Below are positions 1 to 61,607 of a DNA stretch of 64,000 nucleotides, one piece after another; the stretch's first letter is position 1, and each line of letters opens with the position of its first letter. The notes under the pieces are model-generated. The model searched no databases. It saw only the letters and a list, made by a program, of their open reading frames with translations, and had not been told where the DNA came from. The position numbers and the translations under genes were made by a program. The stretch is from a bacterium. Its GTDB lineage: Bacteria > Patescibacteriota > Minisyncoccia > Phycocordibacterales > UBA9973. Where the stretch lies: NCBI GenBank assembly GCA_037143195.1, contig JBAWZD010000002.1, forward strand, positions 72,785-136,784, given 5' to 3'.

Positions 1-90
1 CGTGTGGTACATGTGCACGGAGTCGACGGGTCGTACGGGGCTTGATTTTCATTAGGAGGTGCGTGTGAGATAATACAAATACTAAATTAT

Positions 91-1788
91 ATGGAAACAA
101 AAAACTGCCAAAATTGCCACCTTGATTTCGTTATTGACGAGCGCGACCAAAATTACTATCAAAAGATTGATGTTCCGCATCCCACGTGGTGTCCGAAATG
201 TCGTTTTGAGCGCCGCATGTCTACGCATAATGTATGGAGTGTATACTGGCGGAATTGTGCGAAATGCGAAAAGCGCACGCTTTCCATGTACAACAAAACT
301 GTTCCGATTGAGGTCTATTGTAATGATTGTTGGTGGAGTGATGAGTGGGATGGAACTGAATATGGAATGGAATATGATCCGACTCGAAACTTTTTTGAAC
401 AAGTATATGAGCTCTCAAGGAAGACACCTTGGGTGGCACAGGAAGTCCTCGCCCCAACAATGGTGAATTCTGAATTTTGTAACGGCGCATCATATTTGCG
501 TAATTGTTATCTAACATTTTGGGCTGATTATTCTGAAAATGTTTCCAATGCGTCAGTCATTCTTGAATTGAAAGATTCAACAGATTGTCTTCGTGCACGT
601 GAATCACAGCTTTGCTCGGAATCAATTGGCATCAACAAATGCTACCGGACATTTTACTCAGAGGAATGTGATGCATGTACGGATGTTTGGTTCTCTCGTA
701 ATTGTTACAATTGTACGAATTGCATTGGTTGTGTAAATGTACGAGATGCTTCGTACATGATTTTTAATGTTCAGTATTCCAAAGATGAATATCTGCAGAA
801 ACTTGCTGAATTTGGCTTCGATACATACTCAGGAATTGAGGCAATGAAATCATCTATAAATGAATTTTGGGATACACTGCCATATCGTGAATATACGGGG
901 AATTCGATGAATTTGAATGTTACCGGAGAATATATTTTTGAATCGAAAAATTCCGAAGACATGTATCTTTGTACCAGTGCGGAGGATTCTCGATATTGCC
1001 AGTTCGTCACCGTGCCTTCGGCAAAGGAATGTTATGACTACTCAGGGTGGGGTGCTGGTGCTGAGCGAATATATGAATCACATTCTACGGGGGAGAATGT
1101 TGCGAATGTTAAGTTTTCCTACTGTTCGTACACTGATTGTCTTGATGTTGAATATTCATGGTGGGTGATTTCTGGTAAACAAAATTTCGGCTGCGTGAAT
1201 TTGAAACGCAAAAAATATTGCATTTTGAATAAGGAATATTCCAAGGAAGAATACGAGAAATTGCGTGGAGAAATAATCGCTGACATGAAGAAGAATCCGT
1301 ATGTTGACGAGCAGGGAAGAACATGGACATATGGTGAATCGTTTCCGCTCATGATGAATCACTTTGGCTATAATGAATGTTCAGGGAGCAAATATGCACC
1401 GAAGACTAAAGAACAGGCTCTCGCCGAAGGATATCGTTGGTACGATGATGAACCTGCGCTGCATTCTGTGACGCTTCTAGCAAAAGATCTTCCACAAACC
1501 GTGACTACTACCGATGAATCGGTTTTACGGGAGATTATTGGTTGCGCAGAATGTGGACGTGGTTACAAGATTGGACAACTCGAGCTTTCACTTCTTCAGA
1601 AAATGCAGTTGCCGTTGCCTCACACATGTCCGTCTTGTCGCCAGAACGCCCGTTTTGAGCGATTGAACCCACCCGAGCTCTGGGATAGAAATTGTGCGAA
1701 ATGCTCAGGACCAATCAAGACCGCTTTTTCTCCAGAGGGTAGAGAGACCGTGTATTGTGTGAGTTGTTACCAACAAGAATTCGTCTAG
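91..1788 (+). CDS. Cys-rich zinc-ribbon protein of unknown function (paralog 1 of a tandem pair)
   Basis: 565-aa ORF with ATG start. CxxC...CxxC pairs lie at the N- and C-termini, with a central cluster C-x8-C-x2-C-x2-C-x-C (CTDVWFSRNCYNCTNCIGC). It is about 50% identical to the next ORF, and the C-terminal tail ...TVYCVSCYQQEFV is the same in both. Confidence 0.6.
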   Translation: METKNCQNCHLDFVIDERDQNYYQKIDVPHPTWCPKCRFERRMSTHNVWSVYWRNCAKCEKRTLSMYNKTVPIEVYCNDCWWSDEWDGTEYGMEYDPTRNFFEQVYELSRKTPWVAQEVLAPTMVNSEFCNGASYLRNCYLTFWADYSENVSNASVILELKDSTDCLRARESQLCSESIGINKCYRTFYSEECDACTDVWFSRNCYNCTNCIGCVNVRDASYMIFNVQYSKDEYLQKLAEFGFDTYSGIEAMKSSINEFWDTLPYREYTGNSMNLNVTGEYIFESKNSEDMYLCTSAEDSRYCQFVTVPSAKECYDYSGWGAGAERIYESHSTGENVANVKFSYCSYTDCLDVEYSWWVISGKQNFGCVNLKRKKYCILNKEYSKEEYEKLRGEIIADMKKNPYVDEQGRTWTYGESFPLMMNHFGYNECSGSKYAPKTKEQALAEGYRWYDDEPALHSVTLLAKDLPQTVTTTDESVLREIIGCAECGRGYKIGQLELSLLQKMQLPLPHTCPSCRQNARFERLNPPELWDRNCAKCSGPIKTAFSPEGRETVYCVSCYQQEFV

Positions 1789-1835
1789 TCCTTTTTGGTT
1801 AGGTGCTTTTGTGTGGCATACTACAAATACTCACT

Positions 1836-3533
1836 ATGGAAACAAAAAACTGCCAAAATTGCAAAAGAGAATTCACCATTACGGCGGAGGATGCGGACTA
1901 CTATTCGAAGATGAAAGTTCCGCAGCCACTTTGGTGTTCAGAATGTCGTCGTGTGCGACGATTCTCGTTCCAAAATACATGGAATCTCAATTGGAGGAAT
2001 TGCGACAAATGCGGAAACAGGACTTTGTCGCTCTTTCCTGCTGATCAACAACTGACTGTCTATTGTCAGCCGTGTTGGTGGAAGGATGACTGGGACGGGA
2101 CTGAATATGCGATGGAGTATGATCCGTCGCGACCATTTTTGGAGCAGATGCAGGAGCTCGCGCGAAAAACACCGTATTCTGCGCTGACGAGTTTGTACAC
2201 GAGTTTGAAAAATTCTGATTACTCAAACGCGCTTGCGTGGAGTAAAGATTGTTCGTTCGTTTTCTGGGCGGACTTTTGTGAGAACGTCTACAACTCTTCG
2301 CTCTTGAATACACTGAAAAATAGCGTGGACTGTCTCCGTGGATTTGATTCTGATCTTTGCTATGAATCAATCGGTTTTGAAAAATGTTACCGCACATTCT
2401 ATTCAGAAGAATGTGACAACTGTGTGGACGTTTGGTTTTCACGTAATTGCTATAATTGTACGAATTGTATTGGGTGTGCGAATGTGCGCGGAGAATCGTA
2501 TTGTATTTTTAATGTGAAATATAGCCGAGAAGAATATATGGCTCGTGTTGCAAGCATGCGACTCGATACTCGCGCGGGGATTGATGCGGTATACCAACAA
2601 GCTGATGCGTTCTGGCTTTCAAGGCCGTACCGCGAATACCATGGAAGTCCGCTCAATGTTGCCGTCTCAGGGGAATATGTGTACGAGTCCAAAAATTCTC
2701 ATGAGATGTATCTTGCGAATGGCGCGGAGGACTGCAAATGGGCGGAATTTATAACGGTGCATTCGGCGAAGGATTGTCGAGATTATTCTGGGTGGGGGAA
2801 TAACGCGTCAGAAATATATGAAGCGGTCACTGTCGGAGAGAATGCGAACTCAGTCATGTTTGCACTTGAGTGCTGGCCCGATGTCATGAATTTAGAGTAC
2901 TGTATTTGGAATACTGCAGGGAAGAATAATTTTGGGTGTGTGAATTTGAAACGCAAACAGCATTGTATTTTGAACAAAGAATATACGAAGGAACAATTTG
3001 AAATACTTCGCGCGCAGATAGTCGAAGACATGAAGGTGCGACCATATATTGATGCTCAGGGACGTGCCGTCCCATACGGAGAATTTTTCCCGCACGAATT
3101 GAGTAATTTCCCGTACAATAAATCGAATGCCATGCGCTTCTTTCCAAAGACGAAGGAACAAGCACTCGCCGAAGGCTATGCGTGGAGTGATGCGGTGGCG
3201 CCACTCGTCGCGAGTACTATTCGTGCAGAAGTATTGCCCGAAACGATTCTCGAAGCGGATGAGAGTATCCTGAAGGAAGCGATTGAGTGTAGCGAATGTG
3301 GCCGAGCATACCGAATCGCAAAAATGGAATATGATTTGCTTCAGAAAATGAATCTCCCGCTTCCGCATCACTGTTTGAAATGTCGTGAAAATCGTCGCTT
3401 TGGAAGAATGAATAAGCCGAAATTGTGGGAACGCAATTGTGCGAAGTGCGGATCTGACATACAAACTGCGTATGATCCAGACGGACCAGAGACAGTCTAT
3501 TGTGTGAGTTGTTACCAGCAGGAGTTTGTGTAA
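1836..3533 (+). CDS. Cys-rich zinc-ribbon protein of unknown function (paralog 2)
   Basis: The ORF track begins at 1803, but the ATG giving METKNCQNC... at 1836 aligns with paralog 1. The conserved Cys motifs are identical. A hairpin/T-run terminator follows at about 3536-3573. Confidence 0.6.
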   Translation: METKNCQNCKREFTITAEDADYYSKMKVPQPLWCSECRRVRRFSFQNTWNLNWRNCDKCGNRTLSLFPADQQLTVYCQPCWWKDDWDGTEYAMEYDPSRPFLEQMQELARKTPYSALTSLYTSLKNSDYSNALAWSKDCSFVFWADFCENVYNSSLLNTLKNSVDCLRGFDSDLCYESIGFEKCYRTFYSEECDNCVDVWFSRNCYNCTNCIGCANVRGESYCIFNVKYSREEYMARVASMRLDTRAGIDAVYQQADAFWLSRPYREYHGSPLNVAVSGEYVYESKNSHEMYLANGAEDCKWAEFITVHSAKDCRDYSGWGNNASEIYEAVTVGENANSVMFALECWPDVMNLEYCIWNTAGKNNFGCVNLKRKQHCILNKEYTKEQFEILRAQIVEDMKVRPYIDAQGRAVPYGEFFPHELSNFPYNKSNAMRFFPKTKEQALAEGYAWSDAVAPLVASTIRAEVLPETILEADESILKEAIECSECGRAYRIAKMEYDLLQKMNLPLPHHCLKCRENRRFGRMNKPKLWERNCAKCGSDIQTAYDPDGPETVYCVSCYQQEFV

Positions 3534-3590
3534 ATGAAAAACGGCAGACCATATGGAGGTCTGCCGTTTTTTAATTTTGAGGCGCACGGA

Positions 3591-3989
3591 TTATACTCGA
3601 ACTTCTTGCCAAACGATTTCTGTGCAGTTGAAGTACTCTTTCGTGAAGGCAACTGCTTTTTCGTTGTCGAAGGGTTTACAAGTATACGCATCAACTGAGA
3701 CGAGACATTGGTCGGCTTTGCCTGTGACACTCCCTGAACCGGTCGTTACTGCTGGGTACGTGTACACATGTACGCCCGAAGTGACCCAATGTTGCCAGCC
3801 ACCATATCCCATATTGCCAGCAATATATGCAAGCGCTTGTCCGAGTGGGCGCATGCCAACTAGTTTGGTGAGTTTACTCATAAAATCCTTGATGTCGTCT
3901 TCTGTATAGAGACGATCGGTGAGGCCCTCTATCATGATGCGTTGACGAGGGAGTTTTGGGGCGAGATTGTACCAATTTTTAAATTCCAT
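3591..3989 (-). CDS. S-adenosylmethionine decarboxylase proenzyme-like (pyruvoyl-dependent, SpeH/SpeD family)
   Basis: 132 aa. The motif ...VTSGVHVYTYP...VSVDAYTCKPFD resembles the SpeH self-cleavage and active-site region (ESHISIHTWPE...VDIFTCG). Confidence 0.5.
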   Translation of the reverse strand: MEFKNWYNLAPKLPRQRIMIEGLTDRLYTEDDIKDFMSKLTKLVGMRPLGQALAYIAGNMGYGGWQHWVTSGVHVYTYPAVTTGSGSVTGKADQCLVSVDAYTCKPFDNEKAVAFTKEYFNCTEIVWQEVRV

Positions 3990-4106
3990 AACGTTTGTTT
4001 CTCAAATTCTGCTTTTTATTAAACAAATGTCTAATTTATTAGCTATTTTCAATATAAAGTAAATAAATACTTTACTTTATGACGCACATTTTGGTATGGT
4101 TATTGT

Positions 4107-4949
4107 GTGAAAATATCGAGCACTCGAATCGAAGACGAAGTTATCGCTCTTATTCAAAAACGTTCCATGACAGCAATGGAAATTTTGCAGGGTGTTCGAG
4201 TGGCTCGCCCAAAGACAACAAAGCAGGCCGTGTATTTGGCGATTCGGAATTTGAAACATAGAGAAATCGTGACAATACATGCGAAGCTCGTCTCGCTCTC
4301 GCGAATCTGGATTGACCAAATGGCAGATTTTTATATCTTTGCTCGAAAACAGTATGCTGAGTCGTCAGTGGCAGATAGTGGGTACTTAAATCTAGAAGAA
4401 AAAGATCGAATCACGTATTCATTTAAAAATCCGATCACGACGGATGTATTTTGGGCTCACACGCTCAGTGTACTTACAGAAATTACTCCGCAGAGTGAGC
4501 CAGTCTACATATGGAATCAGCATGAATGGTTTTTCTTGGCACACAGGGAGAGCGAGAGAGCATTGTTTCGCAATATGCGTGAGAAGCGAAAAAGAACGTA
4601 TGTCTTGTCGGCACACAAGAATCATATCGATATGCATGTCGCGAAGGAGTTTGATGGAGACTGGGCACAGTATTACGCACTCGGAGAGCAATTGTTTGCG
4701 AAGCCAAATTATTACACGAACGTAGTTGGAGATTATATTCTGGAAGTTTGGCTCGACGAGAAGATCCAAAGTTCTATCGATTCATTTTACGAGAACTATA
4801 CGTTGCCTACGGAGGAAGCGATTCACGAAATTCAGAGAATCACACGAGAAACAGGGCGAACAAAACTGCGGATTTCGAAAAACAAAAAAAGGGCGAAAGA
4901 AATAAAAAAAATCTTTAGTAAATATTTTCTGATTAAAAACGACAAATAA
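4107..4949 (+). CDS. hypothetical protein, possible N-terminal winged-helix domain
   Basis: 280-aa ORF with a GTG start. A Lys-rich C-terminus is followed by a bidirectional terminator at 4949-5000. Confidence 0.4.
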   Translation: MKISSTRIEDEVIALIQKRSMTAMEILQGVRVARPKTTKQAVYLAIRNLKHREIVTIHAKLVSLSRIWIDQMADFYIFARKQYAESSVADSGYLNLEEKDRITYSFKNPITTDVFWAHTLSVLTEITPQSEPVYIWNQHEWFFLAHRESERALFRNMREKRKRTYVLSAHKNHIDMHVAKEFDGDWAQYYALGEQLFAKPNYYTNVVGDYILEVWLDEKIQSSIDSFYENYTLPTEEAIHEIQRITRETGRTKLRISKNKKRAKEIKKIFSKYFLIKNDK

Positions 4950-5000
4950 AAAACGCCCTCTTTTCCAAACAATCGAAGGAAAAGAGGGCGTTTTTTTATT
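4949..5000. terminator. bidirectional rho-independent terminator
   Basis: AAAAAACGCCCTCTTTTCC...GGAAAAGAGGGCGTTTTTTT lies between convergent genes. Confidence 0.6.
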
Positions 5001-5004
5001 TCTA

Positions 5005-6534
5005 CTATCTCGCGTATTCGATGATGCGTGTCTCGCGAATCATAGTGACTTTGATTTCACCTGGATACTTGAGTTCAGCTTCAATCTTCTTGGCGATATC
5101 GCGAGCCATTTCTTTGGCTTCGACGTCGCTCACTTTTTCTGGAGTAACGAAGATGCGAATTTCGCGTCCAGCTGAAAGTGCGTATGACTTCTCGATATTT
5201 GGGAATGCGTTGACGAGCGATTCCATTTCTTGCAAGCGCTTGAGGTAATTCTCAACACTGTCGCGTCGAGCACCTGGACGGCCACCTGAAATATTGTCGG
5301 CTGTCTGCACGATGACGGCTTCGATTGATTCGTGCGGGCAGTCGTCGTGGTGACTCTTCATTGCAACTACAACGCGTGGATCAGCACCAAACTTCTGAAG
5401 AATACGGATACCGATTTCAATGTGTGTACCTTGGACTTCATGGTCGAGTGCCTTTCCGATGTCGTGTACAAGAGCACCTTGTTTTGCGACAGCAACATCG
5501 GCGCCGAGTTCTTCAGCCATCATTCCGGCGATATGTGCCATCTCAACTGAGTGCTGGAGAACGTTTTGTCCGTAACTTGTTCGGAAATACAATCGTCCCA
5601 AAATAGCAATGATACGAGGATCGAAATTGAAGATACCACATTCGTACACTGCCTGTTCACCTTTTTCCTTGATGATTTTGTTGATATCATCCTTTGCTTT
5701 AGTGACGACTTCTTCAATCTTGGCTGGCTGGATGCGTCCGTCGAGAATGAGATTTTCAAGTGCGACGCGGGCGATCTGACGGCGAACTGGGTCGAAGGCT
5801 GAAATGATGATTGTTCCAGGTGTCTCATCGACGATGAGCTCAACTCCAGCAGCACGTTCAAAGGCGCGAATATTACGTCCTTCTTTTCCAATGATCTTGC
5901 CCTTGATGTCGTCAGATGGGATCGCGACGTTTGTTGTCATTATCTCAGCTGCCGTACTTGAGGCGAGACGTTGAATCGAAGTTGCGAGGATATCCTTTGC
6001 ACGGCGACCGAGACGTTCCTCGGCATTTTGCTCCAATTTCTGCATGCGAACCATGAGATCTTCCTCGCTATCACGCTCGATCTCTTGGATGAGCTGATTC
6101 TTGGCATCGTCACGTGAAAGCCCCGCCACTTTTTCGAGTGTCGAGACGCGTTCGGCGAGCAAATTGTCGGCACGTTCCTTGATCTTCTTGATTTCTTCGA
6201 TCTTGCCCTTTTGAATCTCTGATTCCTTGTCGATTTCTGTCTGGCGCGCGTCAAGGAGCTCTTCTTTTTTGATGAGGCGCTCCTCAGTACGCTTGAAATC
6301 CTCGGCTTTTCGGCGTTCCGTCATACGGATGTCCGAATCAGCTTCGTCTGCCTTCTTCTTGGCCTCGTCGAGAATGCGCTGAGCTTCCTCCTTCGCACCG
6401 ACGAGCATCTGCTTGATATCTATCTCAATCGAGCGTCGCTTGCCGAGGGCGGTGACTTTGCGGAGATAGTATCCACCTGCCACGCCTCCTGCGAGAGCGA
6501 TTATAACGATGAGCAATACAATAAATGTACTCAT
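5005..6534 (-). CDS. rny: ribonuclease Y
   Basis: N-terminal TM helix, long coiled coil, KH region, and HD domain (LQHSVEMAHIAGMMAEELGADVAVAKQGALVHDIGKA). Confidence 0.9.
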   Translation of the reverse strand: MSTFIVLLIVIIALAGGVAGGYYLRKVTALGKRRSIEIDIKQMLVGAKEEAQRILDEAKKKADEADSDIRMTERRKAEDFKRTEERLIKKEELLDARQTEIDKESEIQKGKIEEIKKIKERADNLLAERVSTLEKVAGLSRDDAKNQLIQEIERDSEEDLMVRMQKLEQNAEERLGRRAKDILATSIQRLASSTAAEIMTTNVAIPSDDIKGKIIGKEGRNIRAFERAAGVELIVDETPGTIIISAFDPVRRQIARVALENLILDGRIQPAKIEEVVTKAKDDINKIIKEKGEQAVYECGIFNFDPRIIAILGRLYFRTSYGQNVLQHSVEMAHIAGMMAEELGADVAVAKQGALVHDIGKALDHEVQGTHIEIGIRILQKFGADPRVVVAMKSHHDDCPHESIEAVIVQTADNISGGRPGARRDSVENYLKRLQEMESLVNAFPNIEKSYALSAGREIRIFVTPEKVSDVEAKEMARDIAKKIEAELKYPGEIKVTMIRETRIIEYAR

Positions 6535-6756
6535 ACACGACCTGTAGCCGGTCGTCTAGAAAACGCTTCGAATAGTTCGAATCAAAATGACGGAATATGG
6601 GGAGCACACAATGCGGGAAGTCCTGAGATTCATAATGGTTTGAAGAGTAAACGGGGCTTTTTCTGTACGAACGGCCAAACTAATATACTAAAGTTCGATA
6701 TTCATAGAATACCAGAGCTTTGGCGGAATGTCGAGAAATGGTGCTGTATAGCACAA

Positions 6757-6790
6757 AAAACCACCGCGTGAGCGGTGGTTTTTTGTGCGT
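6757..6790 (-). terminator. rho-independent terminator after clpP
   Basis: AAAAAACCACCGCGTGAGCGGTGGTTTTTTG. Confidence 0.6.
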
Positions 6791-6802
6791 CATGTGTTTC
6801 AG

Positions 6803-7393
6803 TTATTTCCCGTTCTTTGACTTCACAACAATCTCGTCGATGATGCCATATTTCTTGGCTTCGTCGGCGCTCATGTAGTAGTCGCGATCAGAATCTTTTT
6901 CAACTTGAACGATTGGCTTGCCCGTATTCTTCGAGAGAATCTTGTTGAGATTTTCTTTGGTGCGAAGAATATGTTTCGCCACGATTGCGATATCAGATGC
7001 TTGGCCTTCTGCGCCACCCATGACTTGGTGAATCATCACCTCAGAATTTGGGAGACAGAATCGCTTACCCTTCGCACCGCTCGAGAGGAGGACGGCAGCA
7101 GCCGATGCGGCGATACCGACACACACAGTCGAAACATCGGGTTTGATGTGATTCATCGTGTCGTAGATTGCCATTGCAGCGGTGACTGAACCACCTGGGG
7201 AATTGATATAGAGTTTAATATCTTTTTTCGGGTCTTCGTTTTCAAGGAAGAGCAATTGAGCAATGACGATGTTTGCCATGTGGTCATCAATCGCTCCACC
7301 GAGGAAGATGATACGTTCGCGCAAGAGACGCGAGTAGATATCGTACGCGCGTTCGCCAAACTGACTTTTTTCGATGACTGTTGGGATGAGCAT
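6803..7393 (-). CDS. clpP: ATP-dependent Clp protease proteolytic subunit
   Basis: [10 protein letters not shown]...[19 protein letters not shown]...MIHQVMGG contains the Ser/His/Asp triad context. A terminator lies downstream at about 6757-6790. Confidence 0.9.
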
Positions 7394-7457
7394 ATAAGGT
7401 AAGTGTTACTAATAATGTTTTCTGACTATACCACAAAAATATAGAGAGTGTCGCCAA

Positions 7458-7560
7458 ATCAAAATACGTTTTGAGAAGGCCTCGCGCAGGCCCTTCGGGG
7501 GCCGAGCGGCGATGCTCGCGAGCACGCGAGACAGCGTTGCCTTTCAAAACGTATTTTGAT
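7458..7560. repeat. 63-bp-family dispersed repeat, diverged copy, inside 17-bp perfect inverted repeat
   Basis: ATCAAAATACGTTTTGA arms. The loop carries GAAGGCC...GCTCGCGAGCACGCGAGAC...GTTGCC, related to the 63-bp core. Confidence 0.6.
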
Positions 7561-7577
7561 ACTGGCCACTCTGTTTT

Positions 7578-8621
7578 TTATTGCTGAGCTTCGAGGAACT
7601 TAAAGATTTCTTCGTTGAGCATCATGTGCGCAACATACATGCGAGCACGGAGTGGGTCTGCGTCCTGATATGTTTGGATGAGACGCTTGGTTTCGTTTTC
7701 AACTTCTTCGGCTTTTGGTTCGAGTTTTTCTGCTTTTGCGATTTCCATCATGATGAGCTCGGTCTTTGCGCGCTTCTCAGCATCAGGAAGCAAATCTTTT
7801 TGAATATCAGCTTCTGACTTTTGTACGTGTTTGAGATATTCTTCAAACGGGATTCCAGCTTGAGCAATATCTGCCTTGAGACGATTGATGAGATTTTCTG
7901 CTTCGTTCTCAATGAGTACTTGAGGAATTTCGATTGTTGTTGCTTCAGCTATCTTTTCAAGTGTTGCGATACGGCGCTTCTCAAGATCGCGCGCGATTTT
8001 TTCTGCCTTGATATTTTCGCGGAATTTTGTTTTGAATGCATCCACGTTTTCGAACTCTCCGAGCAATTTTACATATTCGTCATCGAGTGTTGCATCGAAT
8101 TCAAGTTTCTCAAATTCAGCATGATCATGTTTCTCACCTGACTGATGAATCTCATTGTGCTTGCGAGCCTTTTTGAGTTCTTTTATTGCCTCGTCGAGCT
8201 CTGCGTCAGTGACAGTTACATCGGCAACAGTTTTGTTTTCAACTGCTGCGATCTTTTTGTATTCAGGAAGTTTGACTTCTGGAAGAGTCGCAACGACTGC
8301 AGTAAATTCGAGGTCGTTGTCTTTTGCGAGTTTGGTGAGCGTGATTGATGGGCGACCAATCGCGTCAATCTTCTCGTCCTTCAAAATCTTTGGGAAATGT
8401 TCATTGATCGCAATATCTGCCATCTCCTCAAGGAGCATCATTGGGTTGAGCTCTTTTTCAAGAATGTTTGCTGGTACCTTGCCTTTGCGGAATCCTGGGA
8501 TTTCGACGTGTTCGCCGGCGCGACTGAGTGCTTTTGCACGGTAGCTTTCAAATACTTCGGCTGGGATTACGACTTCAATCTGGGTTTCGCTCTTTGGTAA
8601 TTTTTTGATTGTATTTTTCAT
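7578..8621 (-). CDS. tig: trigger factor (short form)
   Basis: The N-terminal ribosome-binding domain carries the GFRKGKVP signature. At 347 aa the protein is short, which suggests loss of the PPIase domain. Confidence 0.8.
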   Translation of the reverse strand: MKNTIKKLPKSETQIEVVIPAEVFESYRAKALSRAGEHVEIPGFRKGKVPANILEKELNPMMLLEEMADIAINEHFPKILKDEKIDAIGRPSITLTKLAKDNDLEFTAVVATLPEVKLPEYKKIAAVENKTVADVTVTDAELDEAIKELKKARKHNEIHQSGEKHDHAEFEKLEFDATLDDEYVKLLGEFENVDAFKTKFRENIKAEKIARDLEKRRIATLEKIAEATTIEIPQVLIENEAENLINRLKADIAQAGIPFEEYLKHVQKSEADIQKDLLPDAEKRAKTELIMMEIAKAEKLEPKAEEVENETKRLIQTYQDADPLRARMYVAHMMLNEEIFKFLEAQQ

Positions 8622-8656
8622 GGTTTTCGCATACTAACACAAAAATCAAGCAGGAA

Positions 8657-8771
8657 CAAAAGCACACGCGCCTCCTTTGAAAAGGCAACCCGTTCCGCGT
8701 GCTCGCGGCCGGGCTTCTCGGCGCCAAGCGCCTGCGAAAGGCCTTCTTCAAAGGAGGCGCGTGTGCTTTTG
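8657..8771. repeat. 63-bp-family dispersed repeat copy (8684-8746) inside 25-bp perfect inverted repeat
   Basis: GGCAACCCGTTCCGCGTGCTCGCGGCCGGGCTTCTCGGCGCCAAGCGCCTGCGAAAGGCCTTC is flanked by CAAAAGCACACGCGCCTCCTTTGAA and its reverse complement. Confidence 0.7.
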
Positions 8772-8789
8772 TTTGTTGCTCGTTCGAGT

Positions 8790-8996
8790 TTAGTTTGTGA
8801 GAGACCCTGCGGCGTTGGCGTCGAGGTTGAGGCCGGCTTCGGCGGCGGTTTTGGCTTGGTGATTTTGGATGAGGTCAGTTTGTTTGCGCACGTTTTGGTA
8901 GAGGAAGTAGCCTGCGACAATCAAGATGGCGAGGATGATGACAATACCGGCGAGGGCACCACCGTTTTCTTTTGTTTTGCGCGCGCTTCCTTTCAT
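8790..8996 (-). CDS. small single-pass membrane protein
   Basis: The ATG at 8996 gives MKGSARKTKENGGALAGIVIILAILIVAGYFLY.... One TM helix is present. The longer ORF in the track has no support upstream of this ATG. Confidence 0.4.
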   Translation of the reverse strand: MKGSARKTKENGGALAGIVIILAILIVAGYFLYQNVRKQTDLIQNHQAKTAAEAGLNLDANAAGSLTN

Positions 8997-9038
8997 ATAC
9001 TCTGAGTATATACAATTTTCCGAAAAATGAAAGAAAAA

Positions 9039-9072
9039 ATCACGCACCAATTCGGTGCGTGATTTTTTCGTA
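9039..9072 (-). terminator. rho-independent terminator after ppa
   Basis: AAAAAATCACGCACCAATTCGGTGCGTGATTTTTT. Confidence 0.55.
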
Positions 9073-9082
9073 ATCCCCTCTG

Positions 9083-9667
9083 TTATTTTACTTTCGGAGC
9101 GTAGTTTTTTGCATACACATCGACACATTCTTTGATGACCTTCATTGCTTCTTCTGGTCCATAGAATGTTTCGACGACACCAGTACCTGGTTTCTTGAGT
9201 GCTTTGTAATTCTCCCAGTAGTATTGTGTCTGCTTTTTGAAATATTCTCCGAGCTGATCGACATGCGTGATGTGATCTTGGCGCTTGTCTTCACTGATGA
9301 CGGCGATGATTTTGTCATCAACTTCACCTCCATCGATATATTTCATGATACCGATGACGCGGAGTTCAACGACTGATCCTGGCACGAGTGGCTCAGTGAC
9401 ATTCACGACTTCAATATCGAGTGGGTCGTTGTCCTGATCCCATGTCATTGGAATCGCTCCGTAAGTGAATGGATATGCCATTGAAGAATATCCAACACGA
9501 TCGAGTTTGAGCTGACCACTCTCGGTGATGAGTTCGTACTTGTTGATAGATCCAGCAGAGACTTCGACGATTGCATTGATGATGCACTTTGATTCATCGA
9601 CGACGGCTGGGAGTACGTGCAACAAATTGAGCATGTACTTTGATGGTTCGTGATTGATGTTTGCCAT
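9083..9667 (-). CDS. ppa: inorganic pyrophosphatase (family I)
   Basis: Carries the family I pyrophosphatase fold motifs, e.g. DPLDIEVV...GSVVELRVIGIMKYIDGGEVDDKIIAV. Confidence 0.85.
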   Translation of the reverse strand: MANINHEPSKYMLNLLHVLPAVVDESKCIINAIVEVSAGSINKYELITESGQLKLDRVGYSSMAYPFTYGAIPMTWDQDNDPLDIEVVNVTEPLVPGSVVELRVIGIMKYIDGGEVDDKIIAVISEDKRQDHITHVDQLGEYFKKQTQYYWENYKALKKPGTGVVETFYGPEEAMKVIKECVDVYAKNYAPKVK

Positions 9668-9684
9668 ATGCTTCTATTATATGA

Positions 9685-10860
9685 TTAAGCAGCGTCTTCG
9701 GCTACTGTCTCTTTTTTCTCAACAACTGTTTCACCGTCTGATGATCCTACTGTTTCACCAGCGACTCCTTTGATATCAATTCTCCATCCTGTGAGTTTTG
9801 CGGCGAGACGAACGTTCTGTCCGCCCTTTCCAATCGCGAGTGAGAGCTGATCATCTGCGACTTCAACACTTGCAGTGTGCTCAGTGTCATTGATGACGAC
9901 TGAGAGTGCTTTTGCTGGAGAAAGTGCAGCTGAAACGAATTTTGCTGGGTCAGCATTCCATTCGATGATGTCAATCTTCTCGTTGCCGAGCTCACTCATA
10001 ACAGTTGTTACACGGATACCCTTCTGTCCAACACATGAACCGACTGGATCAACATGTTCGTCAGCTGAGAATACCGCAATTTTAGTACGAGCACCTGCTT
10101 CACGAGCAGTTGATTTGATTTCGACGGTACCACTTGCAACTTCCGGAGCTTCTTGGGCGAAGAGTGCAGTGATAAATTTTGGATGGGTGCGTGATATTTT
10201 GAGAGATACGCCACGAGGAGTTTCTTCGACAGCATAGAGATATGCGCGGATACGCTCACCACGACGGTAGTACTCGTTTGGAATCTGTTCTTCGCGAGGA
10301 AGAATAGCGGTAACGCGACCAATATCGACGAAGACATTGCCGCGCTCCATCTTTTGGATCATGCCACTGACGATATCACCTTCGTGACCGCCAAATTCAC
10401 TCATGATTGCGCCGTGTTCTGCCTCACGGATACGCTGAATGATGACCTGTTTTGCCGTTTGCGCTGCAATACGGCCGTAATCTTCTTTGGCTTCAAGGGG
10501 GAAATTGATTTCCTCACCGACAACTGCGTTTGATTTCATGATGCGAGCATCCTCAAGGAGAATGTGGTGTTCAGGATTGAAGCGAACACGCTCATCGCCT
10601 TCTGGAAGGTCTGGAGTATCAACACCATCTTCTACGAAGTAGACAGTTGATTCATCTGCAACGATTTTTACCTGAAAGAAGTCGGTGCGACCAGTTTCGA
10701 GGTCAAAATGCGCGCGGACGATCTGTCCACGTTTGCCGTAGTCTTTTTTGTAAGCGGCGGCGAGTGCCTGTTCGATGGCATCGATGATCTTCTCGCGGGG
10801 GACTCGGCGCTCTGTTTCGAGCTGATCGAGGGCTATTTTGAGTGCTTTGAGGTCTAACAT
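9685..10860 (-). CDS. nusA: transcription termination/antitermination factor NusA
   Basis: NusA N-terminal domain followed by S1 and KH regions (GARTKIAVFSADEHVDPVGSCVGQKGIRV). Confidence 0.9.
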   Translation of the reverse strand: MLDLKALKIALDQLETERRVPREKIIDAIEQALAAAYKKDYGKRGQIVRAHFDLETGRTDFFQVKIVADESTVYFVEDGVDTPDLPEGDERVRFNPEHHILLEDARIMKSNAVVGEEINFPLEAKEDYGRIAAQTAKQVIIQRIREAEHGAIMSEFGGHEGDIVSGMIQKMERGNVFVDIGRVTAILPREEQIPNEYYRRGERIRAYLYAVEETPRGVSLKISRTHPKFITALFAQEAPEVASGTVEIKSTAREAGARTKIAVFSADEHVDPVGSCVGQKGIRVTTVMSELGNEKIDIIEWNADPAKFVSAALSPAKALSVVINDTEHTASVEVADDQLSLAIGKGGQNVRLAAKLTGWRIDIKGVAGETVGSSDGETVVEKKETVAEDAA

Positions 10861-11059
10861 ATATGATTTTAGCCTTATTTTATAAGGCTCGTTATTAAAT
10901 TTTCTAATTTTTGATACGGCGCGCAGGTACTCCCTTTAAAAAAAAGAGCCGGCCCGATGGCCGACATACCGAAACACCTTATCTAGTAACATATATATAT
11001 TACTCTGGCTGGTAAAAAGTGTCAATACGGGATGTGCGGCGACATAATATGTGTTTGTC

Positions 11060-11147
11060 GCCGCCGAGGACTGACCGAGCGAGCGGTTTCGGAGTATAGA
11101 GCGTAAACTACAAGCGCATTATTACGCGAGCAAGATTCCGCAGGCAA
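11060..11147 (-). repeat. ~90-bp-family dispersed repeat copy (core TTGCTCGCGTAA...GAAACCGCTCGCTCGGTCAGTCCTCG)
   Basis: Reverse-orientation copy in the nusA upstream intergenic region, flanked by short GTGCGGCG/CGCCGCAC inverted repeats. Confidence 0.65.
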
Positions 11148-11228
11148 GATAAATACACTATTATGGCGCCGCACTTACGTGTTGTTGGTTTTCCACAGTA
11201 GAGTGATTGATATCCACTGTCGCGATAA

Positions 11229-11561
11229 GTGATACAATATATGTCTATGGATGCTCCAACACAGAAAGCAGTTCGTTCGTCGCGTTCAAATGTTACCGCG
11301 TTCCTTTTTATTATCATTGGGCTTGCCATTGTCGCGAGTGTGATTGTGTTTTTGAAGAAGACCACAAACAACAATCAGGCACAGAAAGCTGACCTGCATG
11401 CAGGTATTATCAATCAGATCGCGACAGACTCGACCCAAGGAGACTTGAGTACCAAAGAGAAGACCGATATTTTGAAACAAGTGAGCAAAAATACTCCCGT
11501 GACGAGTGCTCAAGACCGAGCGGCGATACTCGATTCTATTAGTAAGGCTTCAACACAATAA
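11229..11561 (+). CDS. small membrane-anchored protein
   Basis: 110 aa with a single N-terminal TM helix (AFLFIIIGLAIVASVIVFL). It lies directly upstream of the GYAW-repeat protein. Confidence 0.4.
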   Translation: MIQYMSMDAPTQKAVRSSRSNVTAFLFIIIGLAIVASVIVFLKKTTNNNQAQKADLHAGIINQIATDSTQGDLSTKEKTDILKQVSKNTPVTSAQDRAAILDSISKASTQ

Positions 11562-11566
11562 GCACA

Positions 11567-13153
11567 ATGACAACTATCACACAGTGGATCAAACAAAAAA
11601 GTGTCATGCTCGGAGTGGTAGCTTCGATAGCAATCGTCACGCTTTTTTCATACGCCACACTCAATCCTCGTTTGACGCATGCCGCAGCGGGCATGGGTGG
11701 AGACCTTCATGGATACGCATGGAGCTCAACTGTGGGTTGGATGAGCATGAACTGCGCTGAGGGCAGTGCTACTGGAGGCACGGTATGTTCAACTTCAAAC
11801 TACAAAGTCACACTCGACCCTGCGACGCAGATTTTTTCGGGATACGCATGGAGTTCAAACGTTGGATGGGTTTCATTTAATTCGAGCGATGTTTCTTTTT
11901 GTGGCTCGCAAGCAGCACTTTCTGCGGGGAGAATGACTGGCTGGGCTCGTGTGCTGAGCGGTGTATATCCGAATGGAGCAGATGGCTGTATCAGTTTTGG
12001 TTCTGCAACGACGAGCACCTATGGCGTGAATGTAGATTCAGTCGCCGGGACATTTTCTGGCTATGCATGGGGCTCAATTACGCTCGGCTGGCTTGATTTT
12101 AGTCGCGTTACGATGACGCCGACCACTGCGACTGTTGATTTGAAAGTCTTTGACCCATCGACAGGTGTTGCGACAAACGGACCACTCACGGTAGCGCTTG
12201 CTTCAGGTACAGGCACTGCAAAACTTTCGTGGACATCAAGTGGTGTTTCGTCATGTACGGCGAGTGTGACTCCTGCGACGACATCATCTGCGACTGACTG
12301 GCATGGATCAGTCGCAACGACGAGTACTGGCGTTACTGTTGGTTACTCACTCGCATCATCGGCGACTTACACATATACAATTACTTGTACGCCATCAGGA
12401 GGGACACTTTCACCCGTGTCTGATTCAGTACAAGTTGTTGTTTCAGGAAGTAGTACCGGAACATATGTTGATCTCAAAGTGCAGGGAGTGAGTGGCCCAA
12501 CAGACGGTCCAATCACTATGCCAGATTGGACTGGTGGACCAGAAGTATTGCTCTGGACTTCATCGTCTGATGTCACTTCATGTGTGGCTGATTCAAGCCC
12601 TCGTGTTTCAGATTGGAATAGTACAACTGCAATTGGAACATCAAGTGTTTCAACCGCGATTACACTTCCATCAAATATGACGACAGGAATGCTTACTTAC
12701 GTGTATAAGATCGTTTGTTCTGGTAGTACAATTGCAACTGACACTGTACTTATCAATGTGCCACCTGCAGACGTGCCAACATGTGCAGTTCGCCCAGGGC
12801 CATACACAATTGGAACAGGAACACATGTACATTTTGAAGTTCCAATCACGATTGCATGGACACCAAGCTTCAATCCGACAGATTTTTCTCTCGACTTGAG
12901 TAGTGCCTCTGGACTTGCTGTTTCGCTTGTTGATACTGCTACAGGCGCACCGGCAACATCAATCACGGCACGAGGTGGACGTCTCGGACTTTGGATTGAT
13001 GGCGCGATGCCGACTTCAACGAAGACCATCGTGGTGAATGCAAGTCCATCGAGTGCAGGTACGGGAGTGACTTCATGTGATTCCGCAAGCATTGTGATTA
13101 ATCCATCGGGCAGCGGAGGTGTTCGCGGTACGTTCCCATGGCAGGAAAAATAA
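11567..13153 (+). CDS. secreted/anchored surface protein with GYAW-x3-GW repeats and Ig-like Thr/Ser-rich region
   Basis: N-terminal signal-anchor. Three repeats of HGYAWSSTVGWMSMN / SGYAWSSNVGWVSFN / SGYAWGSITLGWLDF occur. The rest is low-complexity and beta-rich. Confidence 0.6.
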   Translation: MTTITQWIKQKSVMLGVVASIAIVTLFSYATLNPRLTHAAAGMGGDLHGYAWSSTVGWMSMNCAEGSATGGTVCSTSNYKVTLDPATQIFSGYAWSSNVGWVSFNSSDVSFCGSQAALSAGRMTGWARVLSGVYPNGADGCISFGSATTSTYGVNVDSVAGTFSGYAWGSITLGWLDFSRVTMTPTTATVDLKVFDPSTGVATNGPLTVALASGTGTAKLSWTSSGVSSCTASVTPATTSSATDWHGSVATTSTGVTVGYSLASSATYTYTITCTPSGGTLSPVSDSVQVVVSGSSTGTYVDLKVQGVSGPTDGPITMPDWTGGPEVLLWTSSSDVTSCVADSSPRVSDWNSTTAIGTSSVSTAITLPSNMTTGMLTYVYKIVCSGSTIATDTVLINVPPADVPTCAVRPGPYTIGTGTHVHFEVPITIAWTPSFNPTDFSLDLSSASGLAVSLVDTATGAPATSITARGGRLGLWIDGAMPTSTKTIVVNASPSSAGTGVTSCDSASIVINPSGSGGVRGTFPWQEK

Positions 13154-13177
13154 TCGTATTACTAACTTATCAATAAT

Positions 13178-14308: not shown

Positions 14309-14418
14309 TCTGATTCTGGTTGTATACAATAAATCAGTGAGCAAAAAATCCGCGTGAGCGGATTTTTTGCTAGGCAGAATTTTTTTTCATTGATATAATG
14401 AATGAGTAAAAAATTCTT

Positions 14419-16170: not shown

Positions 16171-16181
16171 TTTTTACCACA

Positions 16182-58871: not shown

Positions 58872-61607
58872 ATGGAATCATTCGAAGCCAAAAACATACC
58901 CCAGTTCAAATCTCCTGAGGAGGAAGTCGCATATCTCCGTGCGCACCTTGAAAAACAGGAACGAGCACTCGCTTTGAAAGGGGAAGAAGCAAACAAAGAA
59001 AAAATTGCTGACGAAACAATCAAAGCCTATCGATCAATGGATTCGAAAGATGTTTTGTCTCCTGGTCACAAACTCACAAGTTCTGAGCAAGAAGCATTTG
59101 TCCTTCGCCTCAAGCCAGAGCCGCATGACTCAATCATGGAGGAACTTCTTGGTGTTTTGCTTGAGAATGGAGTCAAAAACGCACTTGATATCGTTGACGG
59201 AATGGAGAATCCTCATGTGGCCGATGATTTTCATCGATTCCTTGTTCAGTACCTTCAGTCAACCAAGAAGGTACCAGGGCTTAAAGAGTCAACCGTTTTG
59301 TATCGAGCGCTCGATACACGCCTTTTTGAAGTGACACTTCCTGAAGTAGAAGAGGGAAAGAAAAAGGGACTCAAAGAATTGTTGTCGGCGATGGAGCAAT
59401 TTTATGCGGGTATGCACTCGATTGGCTTTGGCCGTGAGAACAAAGACAAGAGTCATTTCACACTCGAGATTGCACTTGCTAACAATGGAGAACAGTTCGT
59501 GATTTACGCTTCAATCCCGAGCGGCAAAGTCGACTTGTTTGAAAAACAATTGGTTGCAGTCCAGCCTGATGCCAAGCTCGTTGAAGTGACGGACGATTAC
59601 AATATCTTTGCAGAAGGCCGTGACACAGCAGTCGCATCTTATTCAAAATTTGCTGAACACGATATTTTCCCAATCAAAACATATGATTCGTTTGATCACG
59701 ATCCAATGAATATCATCCTTAACGCCTTCAGTAAGTTGAAAGCGCAAGGGGAGGGTGCGGCGATTCAGTTCGTCCTCTGTCCAGAAGACGATGCCTTGAT
59801 GCATCGATTCCATTTGGTCCTCGAAGATGTGAAGAGCGGATACTCTGTCAAAACAGCGCGTAGTATCGGACGACAAATCGGATTTGAATTTTTGCGTGTC
59901 GGTAAAGAGCTTGTGTTTGGAAGCAAGCCAAAAGAAGAGGGAGAGCACAAAGTAAACGAGCGTGCGGTCGAGCATATTACGGAGAAGTTGAAATCAACCT
60001 TGATGGCGACGAATATCCGCATCGTTGCGTCTGCTGAAAACCGCGAACGCTCAACTCAAATCCTCGCCGAACTTGAATCTGCGTTCAACCAATTTACCGA
60101 AGCTGGACGTAATAGTTTCAGTTGGAAGAGAGTAGTTGGTAGTGATTTGCGCGCACTCTTGCACGACTTCTCGTTCCGCATGTTCAACGATTCGCAGAGT
60201 ATGCCGATGAACCTCAAGGAGCTCTCGACCATTTTTCACTTTCCATACGGTATCAACAAGATGCCACAACTCAAACAGGCAAAGAGTACAACAGCGCCGG
60301 CTCCAATCGAAATGGGTACGCAGGGAGTGGCACTTGGTACTAATACGTATCGTGGAGAAACAAAGAAGATTGTTATGTCCAAAGAGGACCGCGTTCGTCA
60401 CTTCTACGTGATCGGTCAGACCGGCACCGGTAAGACAACAATTTTGAAAAACATGATCGCCCAAGATATCGCAAACGGCGATGGATGTTGTTTTATCGAC
60501 CCACACGGTACGGATATTCAAGATATTCTTTCGTATATTCCTCGCGAACGTATCGACGATGTCATTTACTTTGACCCGGCGTACATTCAGCGACCAATGG
60601 GTCTCAACATGCTTGAGTACGATGTAAACTATCCTGAGCAAAAGACATTCGTGGTCAACGAATTGCTCGCTATTTTTAACAAGCTTTTTGATATGAAGAC
60701 AGCTGGAGGTCCGGCTTTTGAACAGTATTTCCGTAACTCGTCACTCCTTGTGATGGAGGACCCTGACTCAGGATCAACACTGCTCGAGATCGGGCGAGTG
60801 CTTGCAGACAAATCGTTCCGAGACATGAAGCTCTCACGTTGTAAGAATCCAATCATCAAACAATTCTGGGAGAACGCAGAAAAGACGACAGGGGAGCAGT
60901 CGCTCGCGAACTTCGTGCCGTATATCACAAACAAATTTGACGTGTTTGTCAGTAACGACATTATGCGCCCAGTTATTGCGCAACAACAATCTGTCTTTAA
61001 TTTCCGTAAGATTATGGACGAGAAGAAAATTTTACTTGTGAACCTCTCAAAGGGACGTCTTGGTGAAATAAACGCCAACTTGATTGGTCTTATCCTTGTC
61101 GGCAAAATTCAGATGGCAGCGCTTTCTCGTGTCGATATGTTTGGCAAACCAATGAATGACTTCTACTTGTATATCGACGAGTTCCAAAACGTTACGACTG
61201 ATTCGATTGCGTCTATTCTCTCTGAGGCGCGTAAATATCGTCTCTCATTAAACATTGCTCACCAATATATCGCACAGCTTGGAGAAAAGATTCGTGATGC
61301 CGTATTTGGAAACGTCGGTTCAATGGCCGTATTCCGTGTCGGTCCCGATGATGCTGAATATCTCGCAAAACAATTTGATCCAGTGTTCACACCGCAAGAT
61401 ATCATTAAACTTGAAAACAGAACTGCGTATGCAAAAATGCTCGTGAATGGTACTCCAGTGAAGCCGTTTAATATTGCGACATTTCCACCACCACAAGGCA
61501 TGGAGGCAATCGTACCAAAAATCAAAGAGCTCTCGTATCTCAAATATGGACGTGATCGTGCTGAAGTCGAAGAGGAAATCATGGCGCGCTACACTGCTGG
61601 AAGATAG
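58872..61607 (+). CDS. large ATPase: novel ~470-aa N-terminal domain fused to VirD4/TraG/TrwB-like (type IV coupling protein / DUF87-type) P-loop NTPase
   Basis: Walker A VIGQTGTGKTT, a DPHG motif, Walker B LYIDEFQN, and a C-terminal region resembling the TraD/TraG C-terminus (NIAHQYIAQL). Confidence 0.6.
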   Translation: MESFEAKNIPQFKSPEEEVAYLRAHLEKQERALALKGEEANKEKIADETIKAYRSMDSKDVLSPGHKLTSSEQEAFVLRLKPEPHDSIMEELLGVLLENGVKNALDIVDGMENPHVADDFHRFLVQYLQSTKKVPGLKESTVLYRALDTRLFEVTLPEVEEGKKKGLKELLSAMEQFYAGMHSIGFGRENKDKSHFTLEIALANNGEQFVIYASIPSGKVDLFEKQLVAVQPDAKLVEVTDDYNIFAEGRDTAVASYSKFAEHDIFPIKTYDSFDHDPMNIILNAFSKLKAQGEGAAIQFVLCPEDDALMHRFHLVLEDVKSGYSVKTARSIGRQIGFEFLRVGKELVFGSKPKEEGEHKVNERAVEHITEKLKSTLMATNIRIVASAENRERSTQILAELESAFNQFTEAGRNSFSWKRVVGSDLRALLHDFSFRMFNDSQSMPMNLKELSTIFHFPYGINKMPQLKQAKSTTAPAPIEMGTQGVALGTNTYRGETKKIVMSKEDRVRHFYVIGQTGTGKTTILKNMIAQDIANGDGCCFIDPHGTDIQDILSYIPRERIDDVIYFDPAYIQRPMGLNMLEYDVNYPEQKTFVVNELLAIFNKLFDMKTAGGPAFEQYFRNSSLLVMEDPDSGSTLLEIGRVLADKSFRDMKLSRCKNPIIKQFWENAEKTTGEQSLANFVPYITNKFDVFVSNDIMRPVIAQQQSVFNFRKIMDEKKILLVNLSKGRLGEINANLIGLILVGKIQMAALSRVDMFGKPMNDFYLYIDEFQNVTTDSIASILSEARKYRLSLNIAHQYIAQLGEKIRDAVFGNVGSMAVFRVGPDDAEYLAKQFDPVFTPQDIIKLENRTAYAKMLVNGTPVKPFNIATFPPPQGMEAIVPKIKELSYLKYGRDRAEVEEEIMARYTAGR

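Follow-up and report, generated by a model that had tools for sequence, protein, structure and literature searches.

Zinc fingers of the zf_Tbcl (PF13451) and zf_Tbcl_2 (PF23477/TIGR04272) types are known from small stand-alone proteins or as protein tails, and the CxxC-x17-CxxC domain has been shown to bind zinc by inductively coupled plasma mass spectrometry (ICP-MS) in small proteins of Methanosarcina (M. mazei) (PMC12704099). VirD4-type type IV coupling proteins (T4CPs) number 5,713 in 2,918 Patescibacteria genomes, with 148 of them near virB4; S. epibionticum can grow as an epibiont without its T4CP being essential, and the survey's authors raise the possibility of exaptation for other functions (PMC12102498). 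Here we describe ORF1 and ORF2, a tandem gene pair at the left end of a 64,000-nucleotide window (contig JBAWZD010000002.1, positions 72,785 to 136,784) from a Phycocordibacterales genome (Patescibacteriota). Their products are predicted to place two narrow beta-solenoids between two pairs of zinc fingers, and they belong to a large family whose genes are found repeatedly beside those of T4CP-like ATPases.

The fingers and the solenoids are themselves of known kinds, and what is new is their combination. The full architecture, the expansion of the family and its T4CP linkage appear to be undescribed in the literature that could be searched, and searches on the finger Pfam families, on Cys-rich paralogs of the candidate phyla radiation (CPR) and on Parcubacteria zinc-ribbon families turned up no account of it.

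The ORF1 and ORF2 proteins

ORF1 (91..1788, + strand) encodes a 565-residue protein of this zinc-finger/beta-solenoid family that is the same sequence as database protein P0001 (NCBI WCG55_02585); the identical NCBI protein, from a metagenome-assembled genome (MAG), is labelled hypothetical. ORF2 (1836..3533, + strand) also has 565 residues when read from the ATG at 1836. The open reading frame list begins ORF2 at a GTG at 1803, which would add 11 non-conserved residues, but the homologous METKNCQNC starts at ATG 1836, and from there the protein shares the ten-segment architecture of ORF1, all features being displaced by 1745 nt. BLASTP aligns the two proteins over all 565 residues with 0 gaps, 315/565 identities (56%) and 72% positives, a similarity far above chance that marks them as true paralogs by sequence. 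A preliminary description of this DNA, made from the sequence alone, had correctly seen a same-strand tandem pair and put its identity somewhat low, at about 50%; all of the motifs that it quoted are present in both ORFs, and its picture of multi-zinc, Cys-rich tandem paralogs in a CPR genome is borne out.

At the DNA level the two genes are 60% identical and the codons of identical residues match in only 54% of cases, which argues that the duplication is old; ORF2 has orthologs in other genomes that are up to 74% identical. A recent duplication or gene conversion of the pair is ruled out by the same nucleotide identity and codon match, and a recent duplication is also countered by the neighbours within arrays, which are never more than 60% identical. 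The single run of identical bases is the first 26 nt of the coding region, and the sequence ACAAATACT immediately 5' of the ATG is likewise common to both paralogs, so that the shared tracts span window positions 75-116 and 1820-1861; together they could be a translation-initiation element, a regulatory element or a local conversion tract. The proteins are ~66 kDa and acidic (pI ~5), with ~35 Cys each, and no signal peptide or transmembrane (TM) segment is predicted in either; both are expected to be soluble.

Searches of Pfam, NCBIfam, PADLOC and PHROGs give nothing above threshold except PHROG 15341, the fingers scoring below threshold, and PDB queries, whether made with one sequence or with a 116-sequence profile, return LIM-like or ribosomal finger noise only. 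The Pfam and PDB searches that the preliminary description had proposed thus yield no curated Pfam or NCBIfam model at threshold and no PDB sequence or fold covering the protein. The architecture consists of a finger pair, solenoid R1 with a helix, solenoid R2 with a helix, a small conserved domain and a second finger pair, and is internally duplicated.

Terminal zinc fingers

The N-terminal finger pair of ORF1 (91..342, + strand) comprises the zf_Tbcl-like ZnF1 (residues 1-47; C6, C9, C34, C37) and ZnF2 (residues 48-84; C56, C59, C77, C80), and the C-terminal pair (1525..1785, + strand) comprises the zf_Tbcl-like ZnF3 (C485, C488, C513, C516) and ZnF4 of zf_Tbcl_2 type (C535, C538, C556, C559). 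The spacing of both ZnF2 and ZnF4 is exactly CxxC-x17-CxxC in the two ORFs. The N-terminal pair (residues 1-81) and the C-terminal pair (480-562) are homologous (hhalign E 6e-31), and an AlphaFold2 (AF2) model of ORF1 has a helix at residues 35-44 following C34. As in zf_Tbcl, the pair proteins have CxxC-x24-CxxC with FY..K..P..CP.CR, and as in PF23477/TIGR04272 they have CxxC-x17-CxxC with P..RP.VYC..C. They differ in scoring slightly below the cut-offs, and in that two finger pairs here bracket a core of ~400 aa. PF13451 matches residues 3-43 with 21.6 bits in ORF1 and 20.8 bits in ORF2 (gathering cut-off 24), several close homologs having a precomputed PF13451 assignment; PF23477 matches with 24.4 and 24.3 bits in the two ORFs (ORF1 residues 532-562; cut-off 27) and TIGR04272 with 20.9 and 21.5 bits (cut-off 36), and homologs pass the cut-offs of both. 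The earlier statement that the proteins have no recognisable family therefore holds for curated models at threshold and fails for the termini, which are recognisable treble-clef fingers.

Cysteines were counted by group in 432 aligned, non-redundant, full-length family members. All four ZnF1 cysteines are present in 414 members and all four of ZnF4 in 417. The distribution for ZnF2 is strictly bimodal (four in 279, none or one in 151, two in 2) and for ZnF3 nearly so (four in 375, none or one in 39, two or three in 18), so that each finger keeps or loses its cysteines together. Loss of this all-or-none kind is what real Cys4 metal sites should give, and each protein is predicted to contain four Cys4 sites, as treble-clef fingers in homologous pairs. 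Both paralogs in the window retain ZnF2 (232-342 in ORF1 and 1977-2087 in ORF2), which about one-third of the family (~35%) has dropped as a unit. Two of the four fingers appear to be dispensable in part of the family.

Beta-solenoids and central cysteines

R1 (463..780, + strand; residues ~125-230) consists of about nine turns, each of 12 residues, in which the period is (C/S)-x-x. R2 (877..1242, + strand; residues ~263-384) is its homolog (residues ~112-241 against ~263-395; hhalign E 2e-37), and its end, GCVNLKRKKYCILNKEYSKEEY, leads into a capping helix. Downstream lies a C-terminal alpha/beta domain (1297..1524, + strand; residues 403-478) with the signature YGExFP...YNE...PKTKEQA..EGY.W and predicted local distance difference test (pLDDT) values of 80-97. 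The AF2 model (ma70edc2cbb8c), built on a 139-sequence alignment, has a pLDDT of 86.8 and a predicted template-modelling (pTM) score of 0.89, with the fingers and the 403-478 domain reaching above 90; it supersedes an earlier run on a 30-sequence alignment in which the centre was unmodelled (pLDDT <50). DSSP assignment of the model gives one-residue strands every three residues in R1 and R2 and longer strands every 12 (184, 197, 209, 221), and each repeat closes with a capping helix (YSKEEY...). The two repeats align in a 12-residue register, and the Cys plus Ser column frequency in R1 has an autocorrelation of 0.5-0.66 at all multiples of three, with peaks at lags 3 and 12. R1 and R2 are accordingly modelled as very narrow beta-solenoids of ~12 residues per turn with four three-residue sides.

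The motif CYRTFYSEECDxCxDVWFSRNCYNCTNCIGCxNVR, which the preliminary description had singled out as an invariant central cluster, lies in R1 (nt 640-732; C184-C214). It is identical in the pair, but invariance does not extend beyond it: in 139 diverse homologs the central positions are 61-95% Cys. Within the 432-member alignment the coil formed by C205, C208, C211 and C214 has all four cysteines in 283 members, three in 118 and two in 28, and the ladder positions C184, C193 and C196 have three in 160, two in 151, one in 90 and none in 31. Each of the four coil cysteines is 81-95% conserved and all lie within one turn, at positions 1, 4, 7 and 10; at least one is missing in 149 of the 432 members, replaced by Leu, Ser or Val, and R2 lacks all of the central cysteines of R1. 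Because the cysteines are replaced one by one, in graded fashion, and are missing from R2, they are best read as an inward-facing ladder of small residues (Cys/Ser) in the modelled solenoid rather than an Fe-S or zinc cluster. What had been taken for a conserved metal cluster would be the last turns of a (C/S)-x-x solenoid, in which Cys is independently replaced.

A redox or Fe-S enzyme using CxxCxxCxxC as cluster ligand, implicit in the preliminary description, might draw on the conservation of the four cysteines of this single turn and on a sub-threshold 'zf_RING-like' match at residues 193-215. The same four positions show the substitutions given above, and the spacing is neither the CxxxCxxC of radical-SAM enzymes nor the CxxCxxCxxxCP of 4Fe-4S ferredoxins. 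There is no Pfam Fer4 match and no Radical_SAM match even at E<=10, in line with the earlier remark that the motif is not radical SAM. On motif spacing and substitution pattern we reject the Fe-S/radical-SAM reading, and an enzyme of this kind seems to us extremely improbable.

Among described folds, the solenoids resemble the insect antifreeze beta-helix (Tenebrio AFP, PF02420; spruce budworm AFP, 1m8n; ryegrass IBP, 3ult) in their predicted 12-residue turn and inward-facing Cys, a likeness of geometry only. They differ in having no PF02420 match, no signal peptide and no T-x-T (TCT ice-binding) ladder in register. With left-handed beta-helix (hexapeptide) and pentapeptide-repeat proteins they share the beta-solenoid class and short repeated strands, and pentapeptide repeats, like the present family, are multi-copy in some phyla. 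These folds have 18 or 20 residues per turn in contrast to the ~12 here, and their [LIV]-G-x4 and A(D/N)LxX signatures are not in the pair proteins. The hexapeptide features (an 18-residue turn, the hexapeptide motif and a Pfam Hexapep match) are all absent, and Foldseek comparison with proteins of the left-handed beta-helix and pentapeptide-repeat type gives E values of 0.3 or above.

The PHROG match, PHROG 15341 (function unassigned), is to R1 (E 2.6e-6) and represents a weak phage relative. Protein CPt10_1641 of Campylobacter phage CPt10 (L083 2450-2875) is also a weak relative of R1; its 141 aa consist almost entirely of (D/N)CxxCx repeats with a Cys at each third residue, and its depositors flagged matches to the insect antifreeze family PF02420. 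It is possibly a stand-alone, all-Cys form of the same narrow solenoid.

A large Patescibacteria family in ancient tandem arrays

A word-indexed search identifies 3,810 homologs, the best 120 of which, 500-589 aa in length, show 54-95% identity; the names among these homologs are 'hypothetical', Patescibacteria or Nomurabacteria. A profile search of 1.84 billion cluster representatives (50% identity) gives 4,443 matches, and 1,763 of these have E<=1e-30, nearly all of them full-length at 550-600 aa. With one genome per GTDB species there are at least 577 loci, and the best 80 are all in Patescibacteria MAGs, including Paceibacteria, Nomura-, Staskawicz-, Jorgensen-, Giovannoni-, Niyogi-, Lipton- and Sungbacteria and Minisyncoccia. 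Judged from these distributions, the family is very large, uncharacterised and Patescibacteria-restricted. One contig with two tandem family genes (L045; CAYJLM010000079.1) is labelled 'uncultured Gammaproteobacteria', and many others carry the bin label 'Saccharibacteria', assigned automatically by a TPA pipeline; such contigs probably come from Paceibacteria and were mis-binned or mislabelled.

For array and neighbour counts, ORFs were called in 81 loci and searched with the family profile. Two or more copies lie within ~20 kb in 52 of the 81, almost always on the same strand, and the largest arrays have nine copies (L041 and L072) or eight (L016). Adjacent copies are 30-60% identical (median 40%), and 98.6% of array genes are more similar to a gene of another genome than to any other gene of their own array (median 59% as against 43%). 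The arrays are thus ancient by sequence comparison and their copies behave as stable orthologous subfamilies, a pattern that favours separate, conserved roles over an arms-race or phase-variation repertoire.

This pattern bears on whether the family could be a component of anti-phage or inter-genomic conflict built around a HerA/FtsK-type ATPase, which we regard as very unlikely. The multiple copies would suit such a role, the neighbouring ATPases described below weakly match DUF87/HerA and nSTAND models, and an R1-related Cys-repeat domain occurs in phages (PHROG 15341 and CPt10_1641). Against it stand the slow, orthologous evolution of the family, the location of its genes inside housekeeping operons such as dnaK...dnaJ, the lack of any PADLOC match for the three paralogs known at this locus or their neighbours, and its virtual absence from viral contigs, where one edge fragment was the only instance.

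Linkage to VirD4-like ATPases

When the non-family ORFs at these loci are clustered, the dominant neighbour is a soluble ATPase matching TrwB_AAD_bind, TraG-D_C, T4SS-DNA_transf and DUF87, and on these matches it is a T4CP of VirD4/TraD type. It occurs in a short form of ~490-505 aa (T4CP-S) and a long form of ~690-870 aa (T4CP-L), each orthologous across loci; T4CP-L contains a zf_Tbcl_2 (PF23477) finger (E 1e-14), which scores above the cut-off, and after it a low-complexity tail, and neither form has TM segments. The share of ORFs that are T4CPs declines as the nearest family gene becomes more distant, from 11.4% at one gene to 8.8% at two, 6% at three, 2% at four and ~0-1% at five or more, and all adjacent T4CP-family gene cases (24/24) are on the same strand.

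This linkage is seen in three flanking contexts. The first consists of a sigma/HARE-HTH gene, two 2-TM proteins (clusters c7 and c18) and T4CP-S; the small membrane proteins c7 and c18 are often 5' of the ATPases. The second has an NRAMP-like gene, T4CP-S, CutA1, a c14 ORF (nucleotidyltransferase-like as read by eye), family genes, T4CP-L and a lamin-tail (LTD)/PKD protein. The third has a PaaX-like gene, DnaK, T4CP-L, family genes, T4CP-S and DnaJ. In many Paceibacteria (L076 5217-16521; also L101, L102, L103, L105 and L106) T4CP-L, one or more family genes and T4CP-S separate dnaK from dnaJ, all in the same orientation, an arrangement that suggests co-expression with the chaperone operon.

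The linkage is reciprocal. In the reverse test, a metagenome scan seeded with an alignment of the ATPase, family genes are present in 41 of 80 loci, and among loci of at least 15 kb they are present in 20 of 27 and directly adjacent in 16; in loci without family genes T4CP-S and T4CP-L are often side by side, after c7 and c18. The inspection of neighbourhoods in related CPR genomes that the preliminary description had recommended thus turned up both tandem arrays and T4CP-type ATPase neighbours.

The second commonest neighbour is the divalent-ion tolerance protein CutA1 (PF03091, E 2e-20), encoded in 10 of the 81 loci by an ORF of 100-117 aa that typically lies between T4CP-S and the first family gene (L011, L016, L022, L023, L026, L029, L036, L040 and L065). 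A protein of ~480-507 aa with a lamin-tail domain and PKD repeats is encoded 3' of T4CP-L at several loci (L023 18335-19786; L024 16816-18339; L012, L026 and L042), and its hydrophobic N-terminus, as read by eye, suggests that it is at the surface.

The same-strand adjacency to T4CP-type ATPases, the tandem partner genes and a domain common to ATPase and neighbour recall the VirD4/TrwB/TraD coupling systems, such as TraM-TraD and the Bartonella Bep arrays. The differences are that the ATPases here are soluble, paired (short and long) and usually far from virB4, with no relaxase, and that the family lacks known type IV secretion system (T4SS) signals (BID, XVIPCD) and is not linked to a T4CP gene at the window locus. 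By analogy with the Bep effectors of Bartonella, which are tandemly duplicated and encoded beside virD4, the proteins might be effectors that the T4CP-like ATPases export into the host or medium, with the C-terminal finger pair as signal and the Cys ladder oxidising to disulfides outside, in the manner of the 12-residue insect antifreeze beta-helix. The effector suggested in the preliminary description draws some indirect backing from the linkage seen across the family. The tandem arrays adjoining coupling-protein genes, the conserved and partly basic C-terminus, the absence of a Sec signal, the two membrane proteins (c7 and c18) that precede the ATPases and the LTD/PKD surface protein that follows are all compatible with export. 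Proteins of this sort usually diversify fast, whereas these form stable orthologs of invariant length; a protein with a rigid solenoid and four structural Zn sites is ill-suited to an unfolding-dependent channel; the ATPases are without TM segments; and most Patescibacteria T4CPs are not near virB4, with a T4CP not being essential in S. epibionticum (PMC12102498). On this balance we consider translocated effectors unlikely.

Proposed function

No His or other catalytic signature is conserved across the family. Aromatic residues, Asn, Gly and Asp make up most of the conserved positions, the usual composition for solenoids, and conservation is distributed evenly over all segments. From the missing conserved His, the even conservation and the closer orthologs in other genomes we infer that the proteins are non-enzymatic rigid scaffolds, each paralog with its own conserved partner. 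We tentatively propose, with somewhat less than even confidence, that each family member serves the T4CP-like ATPase pair as a paralog-specific adaptor or as cargo, and that the shared finger type reflects a docking partner or ligand in common. Family members would then be client-specific adaptors or cargo of the ATPase system, docking through their terminal fingers on the ATPase itself or on a common nucleic-acid or protein ligand. A more far-reaching version, which is conceivable but which we hold to be rather unlikely, is that the family, T4CP-S, T4CP-L with its zinc finger, c7 and c18 constitute a hitherto unrecognised, Patescibacteria-specific translocation or remodelling machine independent of VirB4 type IV secretion; in that machine the arrayed family members may be paralog-specific adaptors or cargo.

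Several observations weigh against this set of proposals. The solenoid turns are modelled by AF2 at a pLDDT of only 63-70, and C205, C208, C211 and C214 could hold a fifth metal, as an internal Cys4 site, in most members. Catalysis by Asp, Glu or Cys would be compatible with the lack of a conserved His. About half of the family loci have no ATPase within 10 kb, so that the linkage is facultative, and inherited synteny in related lineages, for example in the dnaK...dnaJ context, could lie behind part of it. At the window locus itself the nearest and only T4CP-like gene in the window, encoding a 911-aa VirD4/TrwB-like ATPase (58872..61607, + strand), is 55 kb from the pair, and none is present within 8 kb upstream. 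This ATPase has neither a TM segment nor a zinc finger, and its N-terminal ~480 aa, fused to the ATPase, are weakly homologous to c7 (E 2e-6). T4CP linkage is therefore a property of the family and not of the window locus.

The possible fifth Cys4 coil (C205-C214), the ~35 Cys and at least four Cys4 sites of each protein, and the recurrence of CutA1 as a neighbour would also be in keeping with a zinc or metal buffer or metallochaperone, whose Cys-rich copies store or deliver divalent metal. The non-Cys residues and the exact length are strongly conserved, however, which is atypical of metallothionein-like buffers; the central cysteines are freely swapped for Ser or Leu; and ancient subfunctionalised paralogs are unexpected for bulk storage. 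A role of this kind has in our estimation a very low probability.

Organization of the ORF1-ORF2 locus

ORF1 and ORF2 are predicted to form a promoter-to-terminator pair amid housekeeping genes. The candidate promoter is a sigma-70-like sequence (TTTTCA-17-tgGATAAT; 46..74, + strand) 17 nt 5' of the ORF1 ATG; it is a consensus match alone, and the count of promoter-like sites across the region is not above shuffle expectation. Downstream of ORF2 there is a bidirectional intrinsic terminator hairpin (3537..3573; AAAAACGGCAGACC-ATATGGA-GGTCTGCCGTTTTTT) with flanking A and T runs and a dG of -25.1 kcal/mol (z -5.8), and 0 of 200 shuffles fold equally well. It is common to ORF2 and to an AdoMet-decarboxylase-like (AdoMet_dc-like) gene (3591..3989, - strand). 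This gene, previously called divergent, is convergent with ORF2, with the hairpin between the two. RNase Y, ClpP and trigger factor are encoded farther downstream, and with such flanks the description of the region as an accessory locus does not hold. Beside the pair, a 280-aa ORF (4107-4949, + strand) encodes an uncharacterised, putative regulator with a winged-helix-like N-terminal sequence; it has no Pfam family above threshold and resembles the upstream TrmB-type genes only marginally.

The Logan contig L001, of which coordinates 8135-16873 match window positions 1-8739 at 100% identity, adds 8.1 kb upstream of the window. It contains a third, divergent paralog of 580 aa (L001 3401-5143, + strand; 36% identical), ~3 kb upstream of window position 1 and bracketed by genes for TrmB-type HTH regulators (L001 1941-2687 and 6330-7109, both - strand). 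A receiver-like gene of 252 aa (L001 7247-8005) lies directly 5' of ORF1.

The regulators around the third paralog and the absence of an ATPase near the window locus would fit a different role, that of stand-alone RNA or DNA binders, in which the four treble-clef fingers, through their basic helices (CPxCRxxRR), contact the nucleic acid, the solenoids serve as spacers and the paralogs differ in target; the ATPase neighbours would be incidental or act on the same substrate. The fingers are the best-conserved segments (entropy 1.85-1.86), ZnF1 and ZnF3 of ORF2 have net charges of +3 and +5, and the weak fold matches are to zinc-ribbon and ribosomal-protein fingers. The whole protein is nevertheless acidic, with the solenoids and C-terminal domain net negative, ZnF2 is dispensable in ~35% of members, and an ATPase linkage that is distance-dependent, reciprocal and same-strand in three contexts is hard to dismiss as incidental. 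Nucleic-acid binding as the stand-alone function is in our view a possibility on the unlikely side, and adaptors or cargo of the T4CP-like ATPases remain the tentatively preferred reading.

Significance

A cytoplasmic Cys/Ser-ladder solenoid of ~12 residues per turn between four zinc fingers is matched by no solved fold and would be a new architecture. The reciprocal linkage provides a concrete, testable partner for the 'orphan' coupling proteins of the phylum, and the proposed machine, if it exists, would explain thousands of them in these reduced genomes. Patescibacteria genomes are tiny, yet some spend 17-20 kb on up to nine copies of a 565-aa protein, each of which selection has maintained intact and orthologous between species, and a family so costly, so conserved and so confined to one lineage is likely to be central to Patescibacteria biology.

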